This document shows positions 40,258-51,208 of a stretch of 64,000 nt of DNA, piece after piece. The notes under the pieces are model-generated. The model made no database searches, was not told the DNA's origin, and saw nothing but the letters and a program-made list of their open reading frames with translations. Where the stretch lies: assembly GCA_035285865.1 (NCBI GenBank), contig JAYKHS010000028.1:64001-128000 (forward strand), given 5' to 3'. The stretch comes from Candidatus Sericytochromatia bacterium (lineage in GTDB: Bacteria > Cyanobacteriota > Sericytochromatia > S15B-MN24 > VGJW01). Positions within the stretch are counted from its first letter, which is position 1; every line of letters starts with the position of its first letter. A program made the position numbers and the translations under genes.

Positions 40258-41058
40258 TCAGATCGACAGGTTGCGTCGCCTGAAGACCTGCCAGGCTCCG
40301 ATCAGGGTGGCGAGGGGCAGGCCAGCGAGGCACAGCCACGCGGTCCAGGCCGTTTCCTTCCCCGCGAGGGGTTCGTAGGGCCTGAACCATGTGAACGGGG
40401 ACAGGGGTTTCAGAGGTTCGAGTGCCCGAAAGACATCCCCGAACAGGCTCACGAAGAGCGCGACCATCATGATGGCAATGGCGGGCCGGAAGGCGTTTGC
40501 CGATTCACTCGTGGCCGACGAGATCAGCATCGTGATGCCGCCGAAACCCATCATGAGCAGCAACGCCTGAAGTGCGGTCAGCAGCCAGCCGACGGGCCCG
40601 CCCGGCAGGTTCACGCCATGCCACGCGAGCATGCCGGCGACGGCACCGACACACGCGGTTACCGTCACGGCTTGGCCAAGCACCAGGATGCCGATCTGGG
40701 CAAGGATGAACCTGCCGCGTGTGATGGGGCCCGACAGGGTGAAGGAGAGCGTGCCCCGTTCGATGGCCCCGGCGATCGCCGCTGACGGTATGCCGATGGC
40801 CCACGTCGCCAGCATCGCGAGGCTCAGTGGATGAATCAGGACCCAGGACACGTAGCCTTCGGGGCGTGCCATGGACACCCTGGCGCCCATCATCTTCTTG
40901 ATGAACGAGGGCAGGAGTTTCATCGAGACTTCTGCCTGGGCCCGGTATTCCGGATACCACCACGCCACCATCCCGAGAAACAGCGCGAGGCCTGTGGCGA
41001 GCGCCAGCATGGTCGGCCAGCGGTCCTTGAGGGCACGCAGGAAGACGGCGGCGGTCAT
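40258..41058 (-). CDS. ABC-2 type transporter permease
   Basis: IAGAIERGTL..LSGPITR, LSPFTWF, C-terminal FRRRNL; ~6 TM. Confidence 0.88.
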   Translation of the reverse strand: MTAAVFLRALKDRWPTMLALATGLALFLGMVAWWYPEYRAQAEVSMKLLPSFIKKMMGARVSMARPEGYVSWVLIHPLSLAMLATWAIGIPSAAIAGAIERGTLSFTLSGPITRGRFILAQIGILVLGQAVTVTACVGAVAGMLAWHGVNLPGGPVGWLLTALQALLLMMGFGGITMLISSATSESANAFRPAIAIMMVALFVSLFGDVFRALEPLKPLSPFTWFRPYEPLAGKETAWTAWLCLAGLPLATLIGAWQVFRRRNLSI

Positions 41059-41945
41059 GCGTAGTACTCCAGAAACGAGTCCTCGAGCCGGGCCGGTTCG
41101 ATGGCCACGTCCCGGACCGGCAGGGTGGCCAGCAAGCCGAGCAGGGGCCGGATGTTTCCCTTGACCTCCAGGACCGCGCCGGCGCTTTCCCAGCGGACGA
41201 CACGGGCGTCCGGCAGGATGGCAGTCACAGCTTCCCTCGAGACGTCCTCATCGAGGACGAGGCTGACGCGTCGCGCCATTTTGGCCTTGAGGGCTTCCGT
41301 CCGGGCGACCTCGACGATGCGGCCGTCCCGAATGATGGCGACCTGGTCGCAGAGGCGTTCCACTTCGGAGAGCACGTGGCTCGACATGAAGATCGTGCCG
41401 CCCTCGTCCCGGTAGTTCTGCAAAAGGCCGTGGAAAGCCTGTTGCATCAGTGGGTCGAGGCCTTCGGTGGGCTCGTCGAGGATGACCAACTCCCGCGCCA
41501 GCAACAGGGCGTGGATGATGGCGATCTTCTGCTTGTTGCCCTTCGAGAGCGTCTTGAGTTTCTGGTCGAGGTTGGCGTCCAAAGCCTGGACCATCGGGTC
41601 GAGTCGGGCTTCGGGAAGTTTCATGCCACGAAGGTGGGCGGCGTAGTTCAAGAATGCGCGACCTGTCAGGCCTTCCGGAAGATGTACCTCGCCGGGCAGA
41701 TAGCCGATGCGTCGCCGGACCTCCGGACCTTCACGCCATGGATTTCGTCCGAGGACCGTGGCCACACCGGCCTGCGGGCGCAGGAAATCGAGCAGCAACC
41801 GGATGGTGGTCGACTTGCCGGCGCCGTTTGGGCCGAGGAAACCGAAGATGCTGCCCTCGGGCACGTCCAGCACAAGGTCGCGCACGCCCTTGCCGCCCGG
41901 ATGCAGGTGCGTGAGGCGTTGGAGGGTGATGGCCATGGCGGACAT
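41055..41945 (-). CDS. ABC transporter ATP-binding protein
   Basis: GPNGAGKST, LSKGN, ILDEP, SSH. Confidence 0.95.
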   Translation of the reverse strand: MSAMAITLQRLTHLHPGGKGVRDLVLDVPEGSIFGFLGPNGAGKSTTIRLLLDFLRPQAGVATVLGRNPWREGPEVRRRIGYLPGEVHLPEGLTGRAFLNYAAHLRGMKLPEARLDPMVQALDANLDQKLKTLSKGNKQKIAIIHALLLARELVILDEPTEGLDPLMQQAFHGLLQNYRDEGGTIFMSSHVLSEVERLCDQVAIIRDGRIVEVARTEALKAKMARRVSLVLDEDVSREAVTAILPDARVVRWESAGAVLEVKGNIRPLLGLLATLPVRDVAIEPARLEDSFLEYYA

Positions 41946-41990
41946 GCCCGTCACAGTAGCACAGCAAGGCCTTCAGGCAGACGTGTTACC

Positions 41991-42568: not shown

Positions 42569-44035
42569 CTAGAAGCGGAAGAACAGTCCAAGGATCGGCG
42601 ATAGCCCCCCGTCCTGGACCGTGGCGTTCTGCAAGGCGTCCGCGGCCACGGGCGTGCTGGAACCGGACGTGTTGTTGTTGGCCCCGCTGCCGAGGCGCCA
42701 ATCCTGATAGATGGTCTCCGGACGCCACTGGACACCGGCACGGAGGTTGAGCGGGCCCCAGAGGCGCAGGTCCAACGCCGCTCCGGCAACACCGGAGATC
42801 GTCGACGCGCCCGCAGTGCTGACGGTCTCACCGCTCACCGGGACGGGTTTCTTGAGGGGCTGGCTGACTGCGTTCAGACCCACGCCACCCTGAAGGTTCA
42901 GGCGCAGCCTTTCCGAGAGGGGCAGTTGCCACTGTGCCAGCAGGTCGAGCTTGAATGGCGAGACGCCCTGGCCGTAGGTGCCCCCGGCGAAGCCGAGCGC
43001 CACGCCAAAGCTCTGGCCGGACCAAGGTTCCAGAAGGTCGATCTCGAATTGGGCGCGGCCCAGCGAGGCGACGGCAACTGCCGCACTTGCGCCGAGGATC
43101 TTGGCGTTTTGCATCTGAGCACCGGCGAAGAGCCCCAGCCGCAGAAGCGATGCGCGGGGGTCCTCGACCAGCAGGTCGTCGTCGCGGATTCTGTCCTGAC
43201 CTTCGATGATGACGCCGGTCGCGGTACCCGGGAAGACGCGCGTGACGGCGATGCGCCCGACTTCCGTCGTCGGGACCTGGAACACAGCCCCGCCAACCGG
43301 CTGGGACGTCGGGGTCATGCCACGTATCGCCGTAAGGATGTAGCCCTCTTGCATGCCCTGTTCCGAGCCCATGGCCAGCTGGATAAGGCGGCCCTGGCGC
43401 CCGACGATGCGCGTTTGCAGGCGGAACACGTCCCTGAAACCGCCTATGGCCTCGGCCACGAATTGGTCGGCCGCACGTCCCCTCGCCTGGGCCATCGAGT
43501 CACCGGATGCCTGGGAGTTGATGGCGAAGGAGCGTGCCACGATGCCCCGACGCACCTCGATGAGCCTGCAGGAGCCGATCCACTGGTCGTTGTAGATGAT
43601 CGCCCGGCCCTCGCCCCTCTGGGTGGCGATTTCGTTGGACACGTGGATCTCGATCAGGTAGTCCACGCCCTCGAGCCTGCTCAGTCGATCACGCTCCCCA
43701 AGCAGGCCGTCGATGCCCAGTTGCCGCTCCCGAAGAAGGGCGTCGATGCGGCCACGTTCGACGACCGAGAAGCGTCCGAGGTTGGCCAGCGCGTTGCCCA
43801 GGCGCTCATAGGCCATGTCCTCGTCATCGGCGAAATTGCTGTAGCGTTCGGGACGCAGCAGGGCGATCCGCGGGAGGGCAACGGCCACGTTCGCCATGGG
43901 AACGGCGGCGTTCTGGCCCGCCGCGGACGAGCCCTGGGCTCCCTCTCCGTTTGACCGCCGGATCTGCGCGGTGGCGGGAAGCGCACTTAGAATGCCGACG
44001 GAAAGGGCAAGTGCAATCGACAGGGCACGATTCAC
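42569..44035 (-). CDS. CsgG/FlgT-like protein with C-terminal beta-barrel
   Basis: signal peptide; GRFSVVERGRIDALLRE (CsgG-like); IQLAMGSEQGMQEG (FlgT C-terminal-like); ends LFFRF. Confidence 0.7.
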   Translation of the reverse strand: MNRALSIALALSVGILSALPATAQIRRSNGEGAQGSSAAGQNAAVPMANVAVALPRIALLRPERYSNFADDEDMAYERLGNALANLGRFSVVERGRIDALLRERQLGIDGLLGERDRLSRLEGVDYLIEIHVSNEIATQRGEGRAIIYNDQWIGSCRLIEVRRGIVARSFAINSQASGDSMAQARGRAADQFVAEAIGGFRDVFRLQTRIVGRQGRLIQLAMGSEQGMQEGYILTAIRGMTPTSQPVGGAVFQVPTTEVGRIAVTRVFPGTATGVIIEGQDRIRDDDLLVEDPRASLLRLGLFAGAQMQNAKILGASAAVAVASLGRAQFEIDLLEPWSGQSFGVALGFAGGTYGQGVSPFKLDLLAQWQLPLSERLRLNLQGGVGLNAVSQPLKKPVPVSGETVSTAGASTISGVAGAALDLRLWGPLNLRAGVQWRPETIYQDWRLGSGANNNTSGSSTPVAADALQNATVQDGGLSPILGLFFRF

Positions 44036-44790: not shown

Positions 44791-44847
44791 GGAACTGGCT
44801 GATTCAACGGCGAGCGGCCCCGTAGCTATCGAAGAGGACGGTCATTG

Positions 44848-46449
44848 ATGAGTATTTCGGACAAGGGATTGCTGGCGTTGGGGCTCGGTGGCCTCGGGCA
44901 GGTCCACCTGAACCTGTCGCGTGCCGCCCTGATTGAAGAGGCCATCAAGCGTGGCGAGGGGCGCCTGTCTGCGGGAGGCGCGCTGGTCTGCGAGACCGGC
45001 CATCACACCGGACGTTCCCCCAATGACAAGTTCATCGTCGAAGAACCGTCGTCCAAGGATCGCATCTGGTGGGGCAAGGTCAATCGGCCAGTGTCCGAGG
45101 AGACCTTCGATCGCCTCCTGGGGCGTGTGCAGGCCTACCTTCAGGGTCGCGAGGTCTTCGTCCAGGACCTTTTCGCCGGGGCCGATCCCCAGTTCCGCCT
45201 CCCGATCCGCGTCGTGACCCAGCACGCTTGGCATGCCGCCTTTGCGAACAACATGTTCGTCCGGCCTTCCGGCACCGAGCGCGAGGGCCTGGAGGCCGAG
45301 GCCACGGTCCTGCATGTGCCTGATTTCGAGGCCGTTCCTGAGCTTGATGGCACGAACAGCAGCACGTTCATCATGGTCCACTTCGGACGCCGACTGGTCC
45401 TGATTGGCGGCACGCAGTACGCAGGCGAAATCAAGAAGTCCATCTTCACGTTGATGAACTACCTGCTGCCGCAGCGCGGCGTCATGAGCATGCACGCTTC
45501 CTCCAACATCGGGGCTCAGGGTGACGTGGCGGTGTTCTTCGGTCTTTCCGGAACCGGCAAGACCACCCTGTCCGCCGATCCGGACCGCAAGCTCATCGGC
45601 GACGACGAGCATGGCTGGGCTGATGGCGGTGTCTTCAACGTCGAGGGCGGTTGCTACGCCAAGGTCATCAAGCTTTCGCGGACTGCCGAGCCTGAAATCT
45701 ATGCCACAACGGCCATGCACGGCACCATCCTCGAGAACGTGGTGATGGACCCCGTGAACCGTCAGCTCGATTTGGACAGCGATGCCCGGACCGAGAACAC
45801 GCGTGCTGCCTACCAGCTGGATGCCATCCCAAACTACGAGTCCACCGGCAAGGGTGGGCATCCTCGGACCATCCTGATGCTGACCTGCGATGCCTTCGGC
45901 GTGATGCCGCCGCTGGCCAAGCTGACGCCCGAGCAGGCCATGTACCACTTTCTCGCCGGCTACACGGCCAAGGTCGCGGGCACCGAGCGGGGGGTCAAGG
46001 AGCCTTCGGCCACCTTCAGCACCTGCTTCGGTGCGCCCTTCATGTCGTTGCATCCCACCGTCTATGCCAAGCTGCTTGGCGAGAAGATCGCCCGGCACGG
46101 CACCACCTGCTACCTGGTCAACACGGGCTGGAGCGGCGGCGCCTACGGCGTCGGCAGCCGCATGAAGATTGCGCACACCCGTGCCTTGGTCCGTGCGGCG
46201 CTATCCGGCGAGTTGGACAAGGCCGAGTTCGAGCAGGAAGCCGCCTTCGGTTTCCAGGTGCCCAAGGCCGTCGATGGCGTACCTGCCGAGGTCTTGCTGC
46301 CCCGCAACACCTGGACGGACAAGGCTGCCTATGATGCCACCGCTGCAAGGCTCTCGGGCATGTTCCGCGACGCCATCGCCCAGTTCGAGGGCATGGTGGA
46401 CGGGCACATCCTCGAGGCGGGTCCGAAGGCCATCGCCGCCGCCCACTGA
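44848..46449 (+). CDS. pckA: phosphoenolpyruvate carboxykinase (ATP)
   Basis: TGRSPNDK, YAGEIKK, FFGLSGTGKTTLS, IGDDEHGW, EGGCYAK, ENTR. Confidence 0.97.
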   Translation: MSISDKGLLALGLGGLGQVHLNLSRAALIEEAIKRGEGRLSAGGALVCETGHHTGRSPNDKFIVEEPSSKDRIWWGKVNRPVSEETFDRLLGRVQAYLQGREVFVQDLFAGADPQFRLPIRVVTQHAWHAAFANNMFVRPSGTEREGLEAEATVLHVPDFEAVPELDGTNSSTFIMVHFGRRLVLIGGTQYAGEIKKSIFTLMNYLLPQRGVMSMHASSNIGAQGDVAVFFGLSGTGKTTLSADPDRKLIGDDEHGWADGGVFNVEGGCYAKVIKLSRTAEPEIYATTAMHGTILENVVMDPVNRQLDLDSDARTENTRAAYQLDAIPNYESTGKGGHPRTILMLTCDAFGVMPPLAKLTPEQAMYHFLAGYTAKVAGTERGVKEPSATFSTCFGAPFMSLHPTVYAKLLGEKIARHGTTCYLVNTGWSGGAYGVGSRMKIAHTRALVRAALSGELDKAEFEQEAAFGFQVPKAVDGVPAEVLLPRNTWTDKAAYDATAARLSGMFRDAIAQFEGMVDGHILEAGPKAIAAAH

Positions 46450-46458
46450 CCGGTGTCC

Positions 46459-46503
46459 GAAACGCGAGCTGTGCCGCTCCTTCAGAGGCGCAGCTCGCGT
46501 TTC
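46459..46503. terminator. 17-bp stem-loop between convergent pckA and AAA ATPase
   Basis: GAAACGCGAGCTGTGCC ... GGCGCAGCTCGCGTTTC; right arm lies within the last AAA codons. Confidence 0.65.
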
Positions 46504-48176
46504 AGTTCCGCGAGGCTCGTCTGGACAGCGTCCGCCGTCAGCTCGGCATAGCGGGCCGGCAGATAGCGTCGGCTCGAGCTTTCGTAAACGGCGAGCAGTT
46601 CCATGAACCGGATCATGGAGGTGTTGCGGTTCGGCACGAACTCGTCCAAGGCCGCGAGGACATGTTCGGCGGCCAGGGGGAGGCCACCTGCCCCGGCCTC
46701 CTCGGCGAGACGCGCGGCAAGCAAGAGGACGGCCTCGATTTCCGCGGCCGAATAGCCTTCCGTGCGGCTGGCGAAGGTGTCGGCGTCCCAGTTCTCGGCG
46801 GTGGCCAGGCGATGCTTGCGGAGCTGTGCCTGCAGGATGCGCAAGCGTTCTTCCTCCTGCCACGGCAGGAAGAAGGGAATCTTCTCGTCGAAACGGCCCG
46901 GGCGCTTGAGGTCGATGTCGAGCTTGTCCGGGCGATTGCTCATCACCATCCAGAGCACCTTGCCCCGCTGGCTGGTGTCGCTCATGAAGGTCTTGAGTCG
47001 CGCGAACACTCGGGAAGAGACGCCTGAGTCCCCGTCTTCCCCTCCCAGCGCGCGGTCCACTTCATCCACGAGGACGAGGACCGATCCCAGACCTCGGATC
47101 ATGCCCAGGATCTTTTCGAGGTTGGCTTCGGTAGAGCCTACCCAGCGATCGCGGAAATTCTTCAAGGCCAGGCAAGTGAGTCCCGAGTCGCGCGCGAAGG
47201 CTTCGGCAAGCCAGGTCTTGCCCGTGCCCATGGGGCCCACGAGGAAGATGCCCATCGGCACCTCGCGATGGCGTCCGTCGTGGATGGCGCGCGCGATGCG
47301 CTCCAGCCGCCGTTTCACGGCATCCTGTCCGCCGACCGCTTCAAGGCCATGGTCGGGCTCGATGAGTTCCACCAGACCATGGCATTCCTGTTCGATGATC
47401 TCCTTGCGCTTGCGCGCCAGCATGCCGAGGTCAAGAGGCGTTCTTTGTCCCTTGGCCCAGCGCACGATGCCCTCCAGCTGGATCCGCCGGAGCCCGCTGG
47501 ACAAGCGGGCGAGCTGGGGAAGGGGAGCCCCTGCCGCCACTTCATGGCGCTGGAGGGCGCGTTCGAGGAATGCGTGGCGTTCGCCTTCGTCCGGCAGGGG
47601 GATCTCGATGGGGATGACTTGAGCGTTGCGCACCACTCTCTGGTTGACGCTGCCGAGCTGTTCGGCAACCAGCAGGATGATGTTGTGCGAGTGCAGCATC
47701 CGGGGTTCGTGGGCCCACCGCTCCAAGGTCACGAGCGCGGCACGATCGTCGGCGGACATGTGCGCGGGTTCTCCGGCAGGGACCAGCGTCTCGACGTAGT
47801 CGATGACCAGTCCGCAGCGTTGGCCTGGCAAGGAAAGGAAGGCCTCGAGCTGGGGCAGCACCCGGCGGGCCTCGCGCACGCCCTCCGTCAAGGGGGGCTC
47901 GCCCGTCAGGGCTTGCCGCACCTCGCCCGCCGTGCGGGCCTTGTCCCGCATGGCGGGACTGGCGAAGGTCAGGCCCTCCGAGATGTCATAGCGCAGGACG
48001 ATGTCCTTGGCGGGCTTGAGCAGCGCTTCTTCAAGGAAGGTGGCGAGCGGTACGTCCTGATCCTGCCACGGCACGAGGTCTCGGACATTGCCGTGAAGGA
48101 GGAACTGCACGGCCTCACCGGCCAGGTAGCGGCTGCGGAGGTCTTCGGCCCAGGCCGGTAGCACGGGAGGATTCAC
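46482..48176 (-). CDS. classical AAA+ ATPase with N-terminal degenerate AAA-like domain (SpoVK/Ycf46/Vps4-like family)
   Basis: Walker A GPMGTGKT, pore loop RWVGSTE, Walker B VLVDE, SRH SNRPDKLD..LKRPGRFD. Confidence 0.92.
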   Translation of the reverse strand: MNPPVLPAWAEDLRSRYLAGEAVQFLLHGNVRDLVPWQDQDVPLATFLEEALLKPAKDIVLRYDISEGLTFASPAMRDKARTAGEVRQALTGEPPLTEGVREARRVLPQLEAFLSLPGQRCGLVIDYVETLVPAGEPAHMSADDRAALVTLERWAHEPRMLHSHNIILLVAEQLGSVNQRVVRNAQVIPIEIPLPDEGERHAFLERALQRHEVAAGAPLPQLARLSSGLRRIQLEGIVRWAKGQRTPLDLGMLARKRKEIIEQECHGLVELIEPDHGLEAVGGQDAVKRRLERIARAIHDGRHREVPMGIFLVGPMGTGKTWLAEAFARDSGLTCLALKNFRDRWVGSTEANLEKILGMIRGLGSVLVLVDEVDRALGGEDGDSGVSSRVFARLKTFMSDTSQRGKVLWMVMSNRPDKLDIDLKRPGRFDEKIPFFLPWQEEERLRILQAQLRKHRLATAENWDADTFASRTEGYSAAEIEAVLLLAARLAEEAGAGGLPLAAEHVLAALDEFVPNRNTSMIRFMELLAVYESSSRRYLPARYAELTADAVQTSLAELKRELRL

Positions 48177-49000
48177 GACCGGTCTTGCTCCTGCTGACGT
48201 TGGGTAGGCTGAGCGCCGGACGGACCGTCCTCCAGCGCCATTTCGAGGGCACGCATCTCGGCGAGGGTGCGCTCGGCCACGGTCAGCCCCGAGAACAGGG
48301 CCTCCAGATCCGTGTCCCGGGACGGATCGGCCTTCATGGCGAGGATCTGTTCATATGCGAGGTCAAGTGCGTCTTCCAGTACCTGGATGCGTGCCGCAAG
48401 GACCTGGACTTCGTCCTCCAATTCGCGAAGGCGCGCCTGACGCTTCTCAAGGATGGCGAGGTTTTCCTCGAGGGCCTCACGGTGCGCGTTGGATGCGGGG
48501 GACGCCAGGTCCCTGCAGACCTGATCGATTTCCCGGCGGATCCGTTGCGTGTCGTTCTGGCCAAGGTGAAGGCGTTGGCGATGCATCAGGCTGAGGAGCT
48601 GCAGGTGGGCATCTTCAAGGGCTTCGAGGCGCTCGAGCTCCGACATCATGAGGTCACGGGCCTGAGCGCCCTGCAGCACCAGCAGCTCGCGCAGGGCACC
48701 GATGCGTTCCCCGAAGGCCCTTGACTGCTTGGTCATCGCCGCGGACAGGTCGGCGCGCAGCGCCTTGCGCCGGGTTTCCCGTTCTTGATGTTCGCGGGTG
48801 ACGGCTTCGCGGGACAGGGTTTCGGCAACGTGCGTGCGCCAGCGCGGCAGCAAGGGAGCCAGCAAGAGCCAGATGCCCGATCCTAGTGCGGCGATGAGCA
48901 GCAGGCGCAGGCCCATCCGGCTACCTGTGGCGAGTCCCGTCAGCCCGAACAGCCCCACCAGAACCCACCAAAGCAGATGGGGCCCTGCCAGCAGGGTCAT
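48173..49000 (-). CDS. two-TM coiled-coil protein
   Basis: two N-terminal hydrophobic helices then long heptad-rich region; GTGA overlap with AAA gene. Confidence 0.8.
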   Translation of the reverse strand: MTLLAGPHLLWWVLVGLFGLTGLATGSRMGLRLLLIAALGSGIWLLLAPLLPRWRTHVAETLSREAVTREHQERETRRKALRADLSAAMTKQSRAFGERIGALRELLVLQGAQARDLMMSELERLEALEDAHLQLLSLMHRQRLHLGQNDTQRIRREIDQVCRDLASPASNAHREALEENLAILEKRQARLRELEDEVQVLAARIQVLEDALDLAYEQILAMKADPSRDTDLEALFSGLTVAERTLAEMRALEMALEDGPSGAQPTQRQQEQDRS

Positions 49001-49031
49001 ACGCCAGCCAGCAGCCCCGAAGGCAGCGGAA

Positions 49032-49769
49032 TCAGGACTGGCCAAGGCTCTCGGACGACTGCCCCAGCTGACGCTCGGTTTCGGCGGCAGGCGCCTGAAT
49101 GCCGAGCTGGCGCTTGTACTCTTCCAGCTTGGCCTTCGCATCGACACTGCGCATCTTGTCATCGAGACTGGCCATCTTGCCGGACAGCGAGCTCTGGTTC
49201 ATGTCACGGGCCAACTCGGCCTGGGCTTCCGTCTTCGCGACGGATTCCCGGATACCGTCCAGGGCTTTCAAGTCCGCGTCCACGGACATCCCGGAGAGTT
49301 GTTCCTGAACCTTCAGGCGTGCCTTGGCACTCTCGTGGCGGGCGAGCGTCTGGTCCCGTTCGGACTTGAGCTTTTCGATCTCGGCCTTGAAGGACTCGAG
49401 GTCGTGCTTGTGGCGCTCGGCATCCGATGCGATGCGTTCGAGCTCTCCGCGCAGCCGCGTGATGTCCGCGTCGACAACGCCCTTGCGCTCGACGGCCTGA
49501 AGGGCCGTGGCCTCATCACCGGCCTGCAGGAACTGGGGAATGCGGGCCTCGAGCGCCGTCGACTCGCTCAGACGATCCTCGAGCTCCTTTTGGGTCTTGT
49601 TCTTGAGGTGGACGATTCCGCTCACGGCCTGCATCAGATTCTGGTACTGCTTCTCGCGGGCCTGGATGGCCGCATCGTAGACGGCGGCGGGGTTGCGTGC
49701 CTCAAGGCCACCGATGAACAGGCCCAAGAATCCCCGAACCAGGTTGACTACACGCTCCACCAAAGCCAT
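49032..49769 (-). CDS. pspA: PspA/IM30 (ESCRT-III family) protein
   Basis: amphipathic N-helix ALVERVVNLVRGFLG, E..NP....D, LQAGDEATA, ARHESAKA, LEEYKRQLG; AAGGAAGG SD. Confidence 0.88.
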   Translation of the reverse strand: MALVERVVNLVRGFLGLFIGGLEARNPAAVYDAAIQAREKQYQNLMQAVSGIVHLKNKTQKELEDRLSESTALEARIPQFLQAGDEATALQAVERKGVVDADITRLRGELERIASDAERHKHDLESFKAEIEKLKSERDQTLARHESAKARLKVQEQLSGMSVDADLKALDGIRESVAKTEAQAELARDMNQSSLSGKMASLDDKMRSVDAKAKLEEYKRQLGIQAPAAETERQLGQSSESLGQS

Positions 49770-49852
49770 CGGACGCCTGTCCTTCCTTGCGCGGGCTACT
49801 CCGCATGCGCCTTGTATCATGCCATGAACGCGCACTCCACGCCGAGACGGAC

Positions 49853-51208
49853 ATGACCCAGAAGATTGCTGCGCCCCGCGGTACCCACGACGTCCTCCCC
49901 CCGGACGAGCATCTGGTTGCGCTGGTCGAGGAGACGGCCGCCAGCCTGTTCGCTCGCCATGGCCTGCGCGAGATCCGGACTCCGATCTTCGAGGCTACCG
50001 AGCTCTTCGCCCGCGGCGTTGGCAACGAAACGGACATGGTCGCCAAGGAGATGTACACCTTCGTGGATCGGGGCGATCGGTCCCTGACGCTGCGCCCGGA
50101 GGGTACGGCTGGCGTCGTTCGGGCCTACGTGGAAGGGCGGCTGGATCAGGCGTTGCCGCAGCCGGCGCGCCTTTGGTACCGGGGAGCCATGTTTCGCTAC
50201 GAGCGGCCTCAGAAGGGCCGCCAGCGCCAGTTTCACCAGATGGGTGCCGAGGTCCTGGGCTCCGGTGCCGCGACCGTCGACGCCGAGATGATTGTCCTGG
50301 CCCACGACCTCCAGCACGCCCTGGTCGAAGCCGTCCGAGCTTGGTTGGTGGCCTGCGATGTCCCCGTGCCCGGAGATTTGCAGCCTGTCCCGCTCGAGGT
50401 TCGGATCAATACGCTTGGAGATGCGAGTTGTCGGCCGGCCTACAGGGATTCCTTGCAGGCATGGCTCAAGGATGGGGCGGAAGCATACTGTGGAGACTGT
50501 CAGCGTCGCATGGAGACCAATCCATTGCGTGTTCTCGACTGCAAGGTGGCTGCTTGTCGTGCCCGGAATGCCGGGGCACCGCGACTCGAGCCTTGTGGGG
50601 CTTGCGTGGAACACATGGCTCAAGTGCGTGCCCTGCTCGAAGCCGCCGAGGTCAGGGTGGTCGAGGATTCCACCTTGGTGCGCGGACTTGATTACTACAG
50701 TCGAACGGTCTTCGAGATGGTACCCGCGGGGGGCGGCGTCGCCGCACAGGCCACGGTGTGCGCGGGTGGACGGTACGACGGGCTGGTTGCCGAACTGGGC
50801 GGGGCAGAAACGCCTGCCTTCGGATGGGCGCTCGGGCTCGAGCGGACCGTGCAACGTCTCGAGTCCATGCTCGAGGGACTGGCTCCCGCAGACCGGGCAC
50901 GCTTGAGGGCGGATCGGCCCGTCCTTTACATGGGAGGTCTGGATGCCGAGGCCCAGCGCGAGGTCTTCAGGATGGGCATCGCATTGCGTCGGCTCGGACT
51001 GGCCGTGCAGTGGCTGCCCGTCCACGCGAAGCCGGATCGGATTCTCAAGGCTGCGCTCAGGACCGAGGCTCGTTCGCTGTTGCTCTTGGGCGGCGACGAG
51101 ATGGCATCCGGAGTCGTCCGAATCAAGGATCTGGTGAGCCGGGACGAGCGCCAAGTGGCTTGGCTGGCGGGCGATCTCGCTGCCGCCCTCGGTGGCGGCA
51201 AACCTTGA
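49853..51208 (+). CDS. hisS: histidine--tRNA ligase
   Basis: PRGTHD, LRPEGTAG, FRYERPQKGR, LVRGLDYY, GGRYDGL, GLER. Confidence 0.97.
   Translation: MTQKIAAPRGTHDVLPPDEHLVALVEETAASLFARHGLREIRTPIFEATELFARGVGNETDMVAKEMYTFVDRGDRSLTLRPEGTAGVVRAYVEGRLDQALPQPARLWYRGAMFRYERPQKGRQRQFHQMGAEVLGSGAATVDAEMIVLAHDLQHALVEAVRAWLVACDVPVPGDLQPVPLEVRINTLGDASCRPAYRDSLQAWLKDGAEAYCGDCQRRMETNPLRVLDCKVAACRARNAGAPRLEPCGACVEHMAQVRALLEAAEVRVVEDSTLVRGLDYYSRTVFEMVPAGGGVAAQATVCAGGRYDGLVAELGGAETPAFGWALGLERTVQRLESMLEGLAPADRARLRADRPVLYMGGLDAEAQREVFRMGIALRRLGLAVQWLPVHAKPDRILKAALRTEARSLLLLGGDEMASGVVRIKDLVSRDERQVAWLAGDLAAALGGGKP

Follow-up and report, generated by a model that had tools for sequence, protein, structure and literature searches.

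The window analysed here is a 64,000-nucleotide stretch of contig JAYKHS010000028.1 (positions 64,001 to 128,000 of the forward strand, assembly GCA_035285865.1) from a Candidatus Sericytochromatia bacterium, and it carries a three-gene operon, a conserved module, that encodes a PspA protein, a membrane protein and a tandem AAA+ ATPase (Table 1). An earlier reading made from the sequence alone had described three co-oriented genes of which the last two overlap, and the coordinates agree exactly: 31 nt lie between the pspA stop codon and the middle gene, and the middle gene and the ATPase gene share 4 nt (GTGA). The assignment of the first gene product to PspA/IM30, a branch of the ESCRT-III superfamily, is based on a PF04012 score over the cut-off together with an amphipathic helix at residues 1-18 (hydrophobic moment 0.48), and the subfamily tree placed it in the ATPase-linked subfamily. 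Proteins of the PspA family bind membranes and polymerise. The window PspA is the only one found in this 83%-complete genome.

Table 1. Genes and features of the operon and its flanks (positions in the window)
Feature	Position	Strand	Description
pspA	49769-49032	minus	245 aa; PF04012 62.6 bits (cut-off 33.9)
Internal tail motif ERQLG	49062-49076	minus	PspA residues 232-236, beyond the last helix predicted; candidate tag for recruiting the ATPase
Middle (membrane) gene	49000-48173	minus	275 aa; no Pfam family over cut-off
Tandem AAA+ ATPase gene	48176-46482	minus	564 aa; PF00004 84 bits at residues 310-435
pckA (phosphoenolpyruvate carboxykinase)	44845-46449	plus	PF01293 728 bits; convergent flank, outside the module
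hisS (histidyl-tRNA synthetase)	49853-51208	plus	PF13393 146 bits; divergent flank, outside the module

The ATPase carries a Walker A motif (GPMGTGKT, residues 314-321), a pore loop (RWVG, 344-347), a Walker B motif ending in D371-E372, the sensor-1 residue N414 and the arginines R425 and R428. In classical AAA+ rings, pore loops thread the substrate. Among 68 aligned homologues K320, D371, E372, N414, R425 and R428 were invariant and W345 was kept in 67, which bears out the intact Walker A/B motifs, aromatic pore loop and arginine finger described earlier. The degenerate N-terminal domain of that description stands as well, and can now be called inactive and, on a p97-like model, be specified as a dead AAA+ domain: the predicted layout is a dead D1 (about residues 1-265), with HGNVRD and DYVE at what the fold suggests are the Walker A and B sites, followed by a classical-clade D2 with intact motifs (about 270-540). 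The best fold-search match of the structure model (pLDDT 91.7, pTM 0.86) was p97 (E 3.6e-24, TM-score 0.65). Residues 3-550 superposed on p97 200-767 (Z 23.7, root-mean-square deviation [rmsd] 5.3, 477 residues aligned) and NVL gave a similar superposition (Z 24.2, rmsd 5.7, 477 aligned), while that of Vps4 covered only residues 265-535 (Z 23.2, rmsd 2.7, 263 aligned). Since the N-terminal half superposes on p97 D1, it would be a dead AAA+ domain and not an MIT domain, an assignment that rests on the model because the profiles of the two halves matched each other weakly (probability 9%). The best PDB sequence matches came from the Cdc48/p97/VAT/NVL group, and NCBIfam ranked CDC48 (TIGR01243, 99 bits, cut-off 803) above CdvC (64.9 bits, cut-off 650). 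Pfam gave no match to MIT or Vps4_C in the ATPase, and the Cdc48 N-domain was likewise lacking.

In a tree of 47 D2 domains (all trees, for PspA and for D2, were quick trees), the 29 family members formed one clade (SH 99), to which neither Cdc48 nor FtsH nor any of six CdvC-like bacterial proteins belonged. Grouping the family with these CdvC-like proteins in one clade was rejected (approximately unbiased [AU] test, p = 0.0004), the Vps4 side of the tree being represented by the phylum's six best matches to the CdvC model (185-200 bits, below cut-off) and by no archaeal or eukaryotic Vps4. On this model the ATPase has the D1-D2 tandem layout of Cdc48, with D1 dead, and it forms a clade of its own. 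We thus rejected a Vps4 orthologue, and the earlier comparison of the ATPase with Vps4 is corrected by the phylogeny and the MIT-less tandem fold. Ycf46 is marked by a homologous N-terminal half and a DUF1257/DUF2997 neighbourhood. Against a single Ycf46-like reference (L188), the C-terminal half scored 107 bits and the profile of the N-terminal half gave no match; in the D2 tree this reference sat on a long branch beside the family and its paralogues.

Several relatives of the ATPase were seen along the way. A second protein with a dead AAA and an AAA domain (603 aa, 31% identity) is encoded in the same genome (G000 C3 116078-117886; L045 6001-7809); neither PspA nor the membrane gene was matched within 6 kb of it, and related copies occur in three genus relatives, G088, G055 and G124. 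Three large Paenibacillaceae plasmids (L183, L184, L185) carry full-length relatives of about 30% identity among hypothetical genes; no annotated PspA lay near them, and they form their own branch in the D2 tree. Family members of 808-828 aa (P0046, P0047, P0050, P0051, P0054, P0058, P0060, P0072, P0075, P0116 and P0117) have an extra N-terminal copy resembling the dead domain, giving apparently three AAA-like domains.

We surveyed 47 genomes of the organism's own class, in which counts overstate independence because the genomes are kin. An ATPase orthologue was present in 18, and the linked PspA subfamily was found in 17 of these 18 as opposed to none of the other 29; one of the 17 has its PspA in two pieces, and the single miss is a 75%-complete genome. 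The membrane gene was detected in 14 of the 18 ATPase genomes and in none of the other 29. Eight genomes have the intact triad, one probably has it but interrupted by a contig break, three have a pspA-ATPase dyad in which no membrane gene was found, five have scattered genes and one the ATPase alone; in five of the six genomes of one family all three genes are kept although unlinked. Canonical PspA paralogues form a separate clade whose distribution does not track that of the ATPase. Over 18 linked pairs, the pairwise identities among the ATPases correlate with those among the PspAs (rho 0.85); co-inheritance alone explains this, and we do not count it as co-evolution. No match to the ATPase at 1e-60 was obtained in 154 sampled genomes of the phylum outside the class. 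In family f5 (L189-L202), 11 of 13 genomes combine a canonical PspA with a match to the CdvC model that stays below cut-off (174-200 bits), and none carries an ATPase of the present type. PspA over the cut-off was found in none of the ten genomes of family f4, several of them 96-100% complete. In genome G127, PspA and the membrane gene are each in two pieces (C8 5663-6359; C6 96199-96979), by decay or assembly error.

The same association was found outside the class. Among 251 genomes of a second phylum (that of genome G301), 71 gave a match to the ATPase and 92 to the subfamily PspA, the two coinciding in 62. Of the nine with the ATPase only, seven carry a more divergent PspA within the operon of the ATPase, one is cut by a contig end and one has a distant paralogue. 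All four outside genomes with a lone ATPase gene have a subfamily PspA elsewhere, and none of the four gave a membrane-gene match. In a metagenome set of 79 loci (near-duplicates included), 27 had at least 4.3 kb upstream of the ATPase, and there PspA was present in 17, the membrane gene only in one and neither in nine. Several loci have a long form with PspA, an NMT1/OmpA binding protein, a permease, an ABC ATPase, the membrane protein and the ATPase. In the second phylum the membrane gene was matched in 36 genomes, ten of them without the ATPase; with ten candidates scored per genome, it was unmatched in 45 of the 71 ATPase genomes. Four of eight ATPase-less membrane-gene loci that were fetched lie within a solute-binding protein (SBP)-OmpA/ABC cluster. 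The sequence-only reading made its proposal depend on a conserved triad, and it was corrected on this point once neighbourhood conservation was checked: the triad is not the conserved unit because the membrane gene is missing from 4 of 18 ATPase genomes of the class and from the 45 just mentioned, and also occurs with SBP-OmpA/ABC genes without the ATPase. These counts exclude an obligate triad. The conserved core is PspA plus the ATPase, and the membrane protein is optional.

The PspAs that accompany the ATPase share a C-terminal tail. At or near their C-terminus, beyond a low-complexity linker, they carry a [KR]-x-hydrophobic motif, which is common to PspA groups just 17-20% identical. In a relaxed form (terminal or internal) the motif was present in 47 of 47 ATPase-linked PspAs, 2 of 22 canonical PspAs and 1 of 29 ATPase-less PspAs, against a background of 251 of 6172 reading frames. 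A tail pattern fixed beforehand was found in 11 of 21 PspAs (from 20 of the 62 ATPase genomes) and in 0 of 29 ATPase-less ones, and four of four out-of-sample unlinked PspAs end in K-K-T-[IM]. Sequences truncated at contig ends do not enter these counts, nor do those under 200 residues in the first linked set; the 29 ATPase-less PspAs are 28 from the 30 second-phylum genomes without an ATPase match and one more whose genome does have an ATPase, paired with a different PspA. The ATPase-less PspAs of the second phylum form one derived clade (SH 87) within the ATPase-linked subfamily. In 12 of 14 loci examined, such a PspA lies directly downstream of a receiver-type open reading frame (ORF) of about 450-470 aa, and four of four tested were NtrC-type REC-sigma54-HTH proteins; this clade (L207-L237) may represent an independent PspF-like arrangement. 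The functional link between PspA and the ATPase that had been proposed from the sequence is supported, because their near-perfect co-occurrence persists when the genes are unlinked and the tail motif tracks with the ATPase. The tail may be what lets the motor take hold of PspA polymers and recycle them.

The 275-aa middle protein has two hydrophobic helices (7-25 and 28-50) and a predicted long helical bundle (model pLDDT 89.6). A word-index search returned only four close relatives; a profile search reached the family, with 1070 representatives at E<=0.001, and in many loci the same membrane family lies directly 5' of the ATPase. In position it corresponds to the protein that Ravi et al. (2024; PMC11237479) label 'SIG+TM+Snf7'. 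No match to PF03357 (Snf7) was obtained, with a model that is weak and stayed below cut-off in all 14 controls. Comparison of the protein's profile with PspA gave a probability of 4%, a PDB sequence search with the profile reached a best E of 0.22, and the matches from fold searches were no more than generic helical bundles (best Z 10.9, rmsd 8.2, 168 aligned). Among the fold matches listed, the sole ESCRT-III-type entry was Vipp1 (8qhx, rank 49, E 1.1, TM 0.15). Pfam searches of 127 family members gave no consistent family, the top one of the 25 families listed (out of 43) reaching 4 of 127. The Snf7 label thus finds no support from hidden Markov model, profile or fold tests, although it may still apply. 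An Atlas feature search returned Rv2743c-bearing clusters at 0.92 (40% of members) and 0.87 (15%), which we treat as a lead only. At four loci (L267, L268, L270, L274) the membrane protein occurs with the SBP-OmpA/ABC cluster and no PspA or ATPase match, and in the first two an unrelated helical protein lies upstream at the usual place of PspA.

A related gene context has been published. Ravi et al. (2024; PMC11237479) described neighbourhoods (examples AEY64321.1 and OGG56892.1, also AEY64320.1) in which bacterial PspA stands with a two-AAA protein whose first AAA domain is inactive, optionally joined by a membrane-anchored protein called 'divergent Snf7' and extended by ABC and PBPB-OmpA genes, and proposed ATP-dependent membrane remodelling comparable to Snf7-Vps4. 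The earlier guess that similar neighbourhoods might already be noted in comparative surveys was therefore right, as regards both the PspA/ATPase context and the ESCRT/Vps4 analogy. The window operon has the same ATPase architecture, with an inactive and a classical AAA domain in one chain, PspA in the ATPase neighbourhood and a membrane-anchored protein directly upstream of the ATPase, and homologues in L108 and L113 stand in the published order of PspA, SBP-OmpA, permease, ABC, transmembrane (TM) protein and ATPase. It differs in being a short three-gene form without the transporter and in that no Snf7 relationship was recovered for its TM protein. By architecture and gene order, the window operon appears to belong to this module. 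The available text of that paper (PMC11237479) reports neither the tail motif nor the phyletic profile nor a partner swap, and our literature search, whose coverage left out most subscription journals, found no experimental study of the module and no mention of the tail.

Comparison with characterised systems places the operon as follows. ESCRT systems containing Vps4 are described as confined to archaea and eukaryotes (PMC11188069), and according to a 2025 review bacteria appear to lack a Vps4-like ATPase and must regulate PspA polymerisation otherwise (PMC7619361). Like ESCRT-III/Vps4 (CdvB/CdvC), the operon pairs an ESCRT-III-superfamily polymer former with a classical-clade AAA+ protein that has an aromatic pore loop, and recruitment would likewise be by a C-terminal tail; unlike Vps4/CdvC, the ATPase has two AAA domains instead of one and no MIT or Vps4_C match. 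It shares the D1-D2 tandem fold with Cdc48/p97/VAT/NVL, but it is without the N-domain, its D1 is without Walker A/B motifs and its D2 falls in a separate clade. Mycobacterial PspA-PspM (Rv2744c-Rv2743c) also has PspA followed by a two-TM helical protein, and the mycobacterial PspA homologue is reported to form a complex with Rv2743c (PMC7619361). PspM, placed by Ravi et al. in Actinobacteria only (PMC11237479), differs in that PF25587 was unmatched by the window protein and its orthologues in five genomes, with no control genome over the cut-off either. Hsp70 has been named as a disassembler of Vipp1 (PMC13051332, PMC12798727), and the precedent of chloroplast Hsp70, which disassembles VIPP1 via its C-terminal tail (PMC12798727), resembles the present proposal in the ATP-dependent disassembly of a PspA-family polymer through that tail; it is unlike it in employing a general chaperone instead of a dedicated AAA+ ring.

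We consider it probable, at roughly 60%, that the ATPase is recruited by the PspA tail and disassembles PspA polymers, as a convergent analogue of Vps4. The amphipathic first helix of PspA would bind the stressed inner membrane, where the protein would polymerise as other PspA/Vipp1 proteins do. The ATPase would assemble, judging from its fold, as a Cdc48-like double ring in which the dead D1 ring may serve as a scaffold or as a docking platform that replaces the MIT domain, and the D2 ring, whose motifs are intact, would hydrolyse ATP and thread polypeptide via its W345 pore loops. Binding of the [KR]-x-hydrophobic tail past the last PspA helix would let the motor extract subunits and so recycle or remodel the polymer, with the membrane protein as an optional anchor or localiser. 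The module would then be an ESCRT-III/Vps4 analogue by convergence, built from a different AAA+ lineage.

Several observations weigh against this interpretation. Co-occurrence cannot separate a substrate role of PspA from an adaptor or regulator role, and kin genomes are not independent anywhere in the phyletic profile. Of the 92 subfamily-PspA genomes in the second phylum, 30 gave no ATPase match, so this type of PspA can work without the ATPase; as the ATPase-less PspAs are one clade, they represent one evolutionary event. The relaxed motif was adjusted after the sequences had been seen, and the window PspA keeps the internal motif only, the terminal copy known from two other genera of the family being degenerate here. 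The ATPase relatives of about 30% identity, in the same genome and on the three Paenibacillaceae plasmids, have no neighbouring PspA.

The alternative that survives best, which we nevertheless regard as unlikely, is that PspA acts as a regulator or adaptor, tail docking switching the ATPase on or off or bringing it to damaged membrane for the extraction of other proteins. Cdc48-like ATPases do extract membrane clients, and the ATPase-less sister clade beside a REC-sigma54-HTH regulator looks like a swap of AAA+ partners. The known relation of PspA to an AAA+ protein is its binding to PspF in E. coli (PMC7619361), but PspF binds the coiled coil of PspA 1-144 (PMC6003685; by its title, the same paper also reports that the C-terminal domain of PspA has a second site), and a tail set on a low-complexity linker past the last helix is well suited to be pulled on, as in VIPP1-Hsp70 (PMC12798727). 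It is still less likely that the working partner of the ATPase is the membrane protein or the long-form SBP-OmpA/ABC complex, PspA being merely a co-selected envelope-stress gene: in this operon, as in most of the long ones, the membrane gene does abut or overlap that of the ATPase, and the long form does include SBP-OmpA, a permease and an ABC ATPase, but three class genomes have the bare dyad, the membrane gene is unmatched in the majority of second-phylum ATPase genomes as counted above, and the organism's own genome has no SBP-OmpA fusion. That there is no physical link at all, with the genes inherited together as a stress cassette and a tail that is either a neutral trait of its clade or marks PspA for degradation by another protease, is improbable: short basic-hydrophobic C-terminal ends can be protease tags and the identity correlation needs nothing beyond co-inheritance, but co-occurrence holds when the genes are scattered, and the motif is shared across PspA groups that diverged deeply, yet lacking in the clade without the ATPase.

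Disassembly of PspA polymers by the ATPase can be extended, more tentatively and at somewhat less than even odds, to a bacterial equivalent of Vps4: a half-dead Cdc48-like double ring that reads, without an MIT domain, a tag analogous to the MIT-interacting motif (MIM) and disassembles the polymer of a dedicated PspA subfamily, of which one lineage may have lost tag and motor together and taken up a sigma-54 regulator. The window operon would be a minimal version of this system in a non-photosynthetic sister class of cyanobacteria, supplying the only PspA found in the genome. The module is a direct candidate for the Vps4-like motor that appears to be missing from bacteria and, if the proposal is true, the recycling of ESCRT-III-type polymers with ATP had more than one origin, each in a different AAA+ lineage. 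The gene context was already published (Ravi et al., 2024); new here are the phyletic profile, the finding that the membrane protein is optional, the unsupported Snf7 label and the candidate recruitment tag. The tail motif offers a cheap and specific handle on recruitment, and the pspA-ATPase dyads are a two-protein system suited to reconstitution.

Outside the module, the operon is directly flanked by pckA and hisS and adjoins no pspB/C/F or liaRS genes, in keeping with the absence of such genes noted earlier; this covers the immediate flanks, and the rest of the genome was not searched. A scan of 46200-50100 for promoters and terminators found none. The hisS gene is separated from the pspA start by 83 nt. 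The closest relatives show 80-87% identity; among 17 loci, pckA lay beside the ATPase in only the three closest relatives, and hisS lay upstream of the module in six, every one of the organism's own family. GC content and GC content at third codon positions (GC3) of the operon are those of the flanking housekeeping genes, and a horizontal insertion of the operon was rejected, neither measure showing an anomaly. Further along the window, a 488-aa ORF with a CsgG-like domain (27.4 bits) is encoded on the minus strand at 42569-44035 and, near it, what appears by inspection to be an ABC-type exporter pair lies at 40258-41954.

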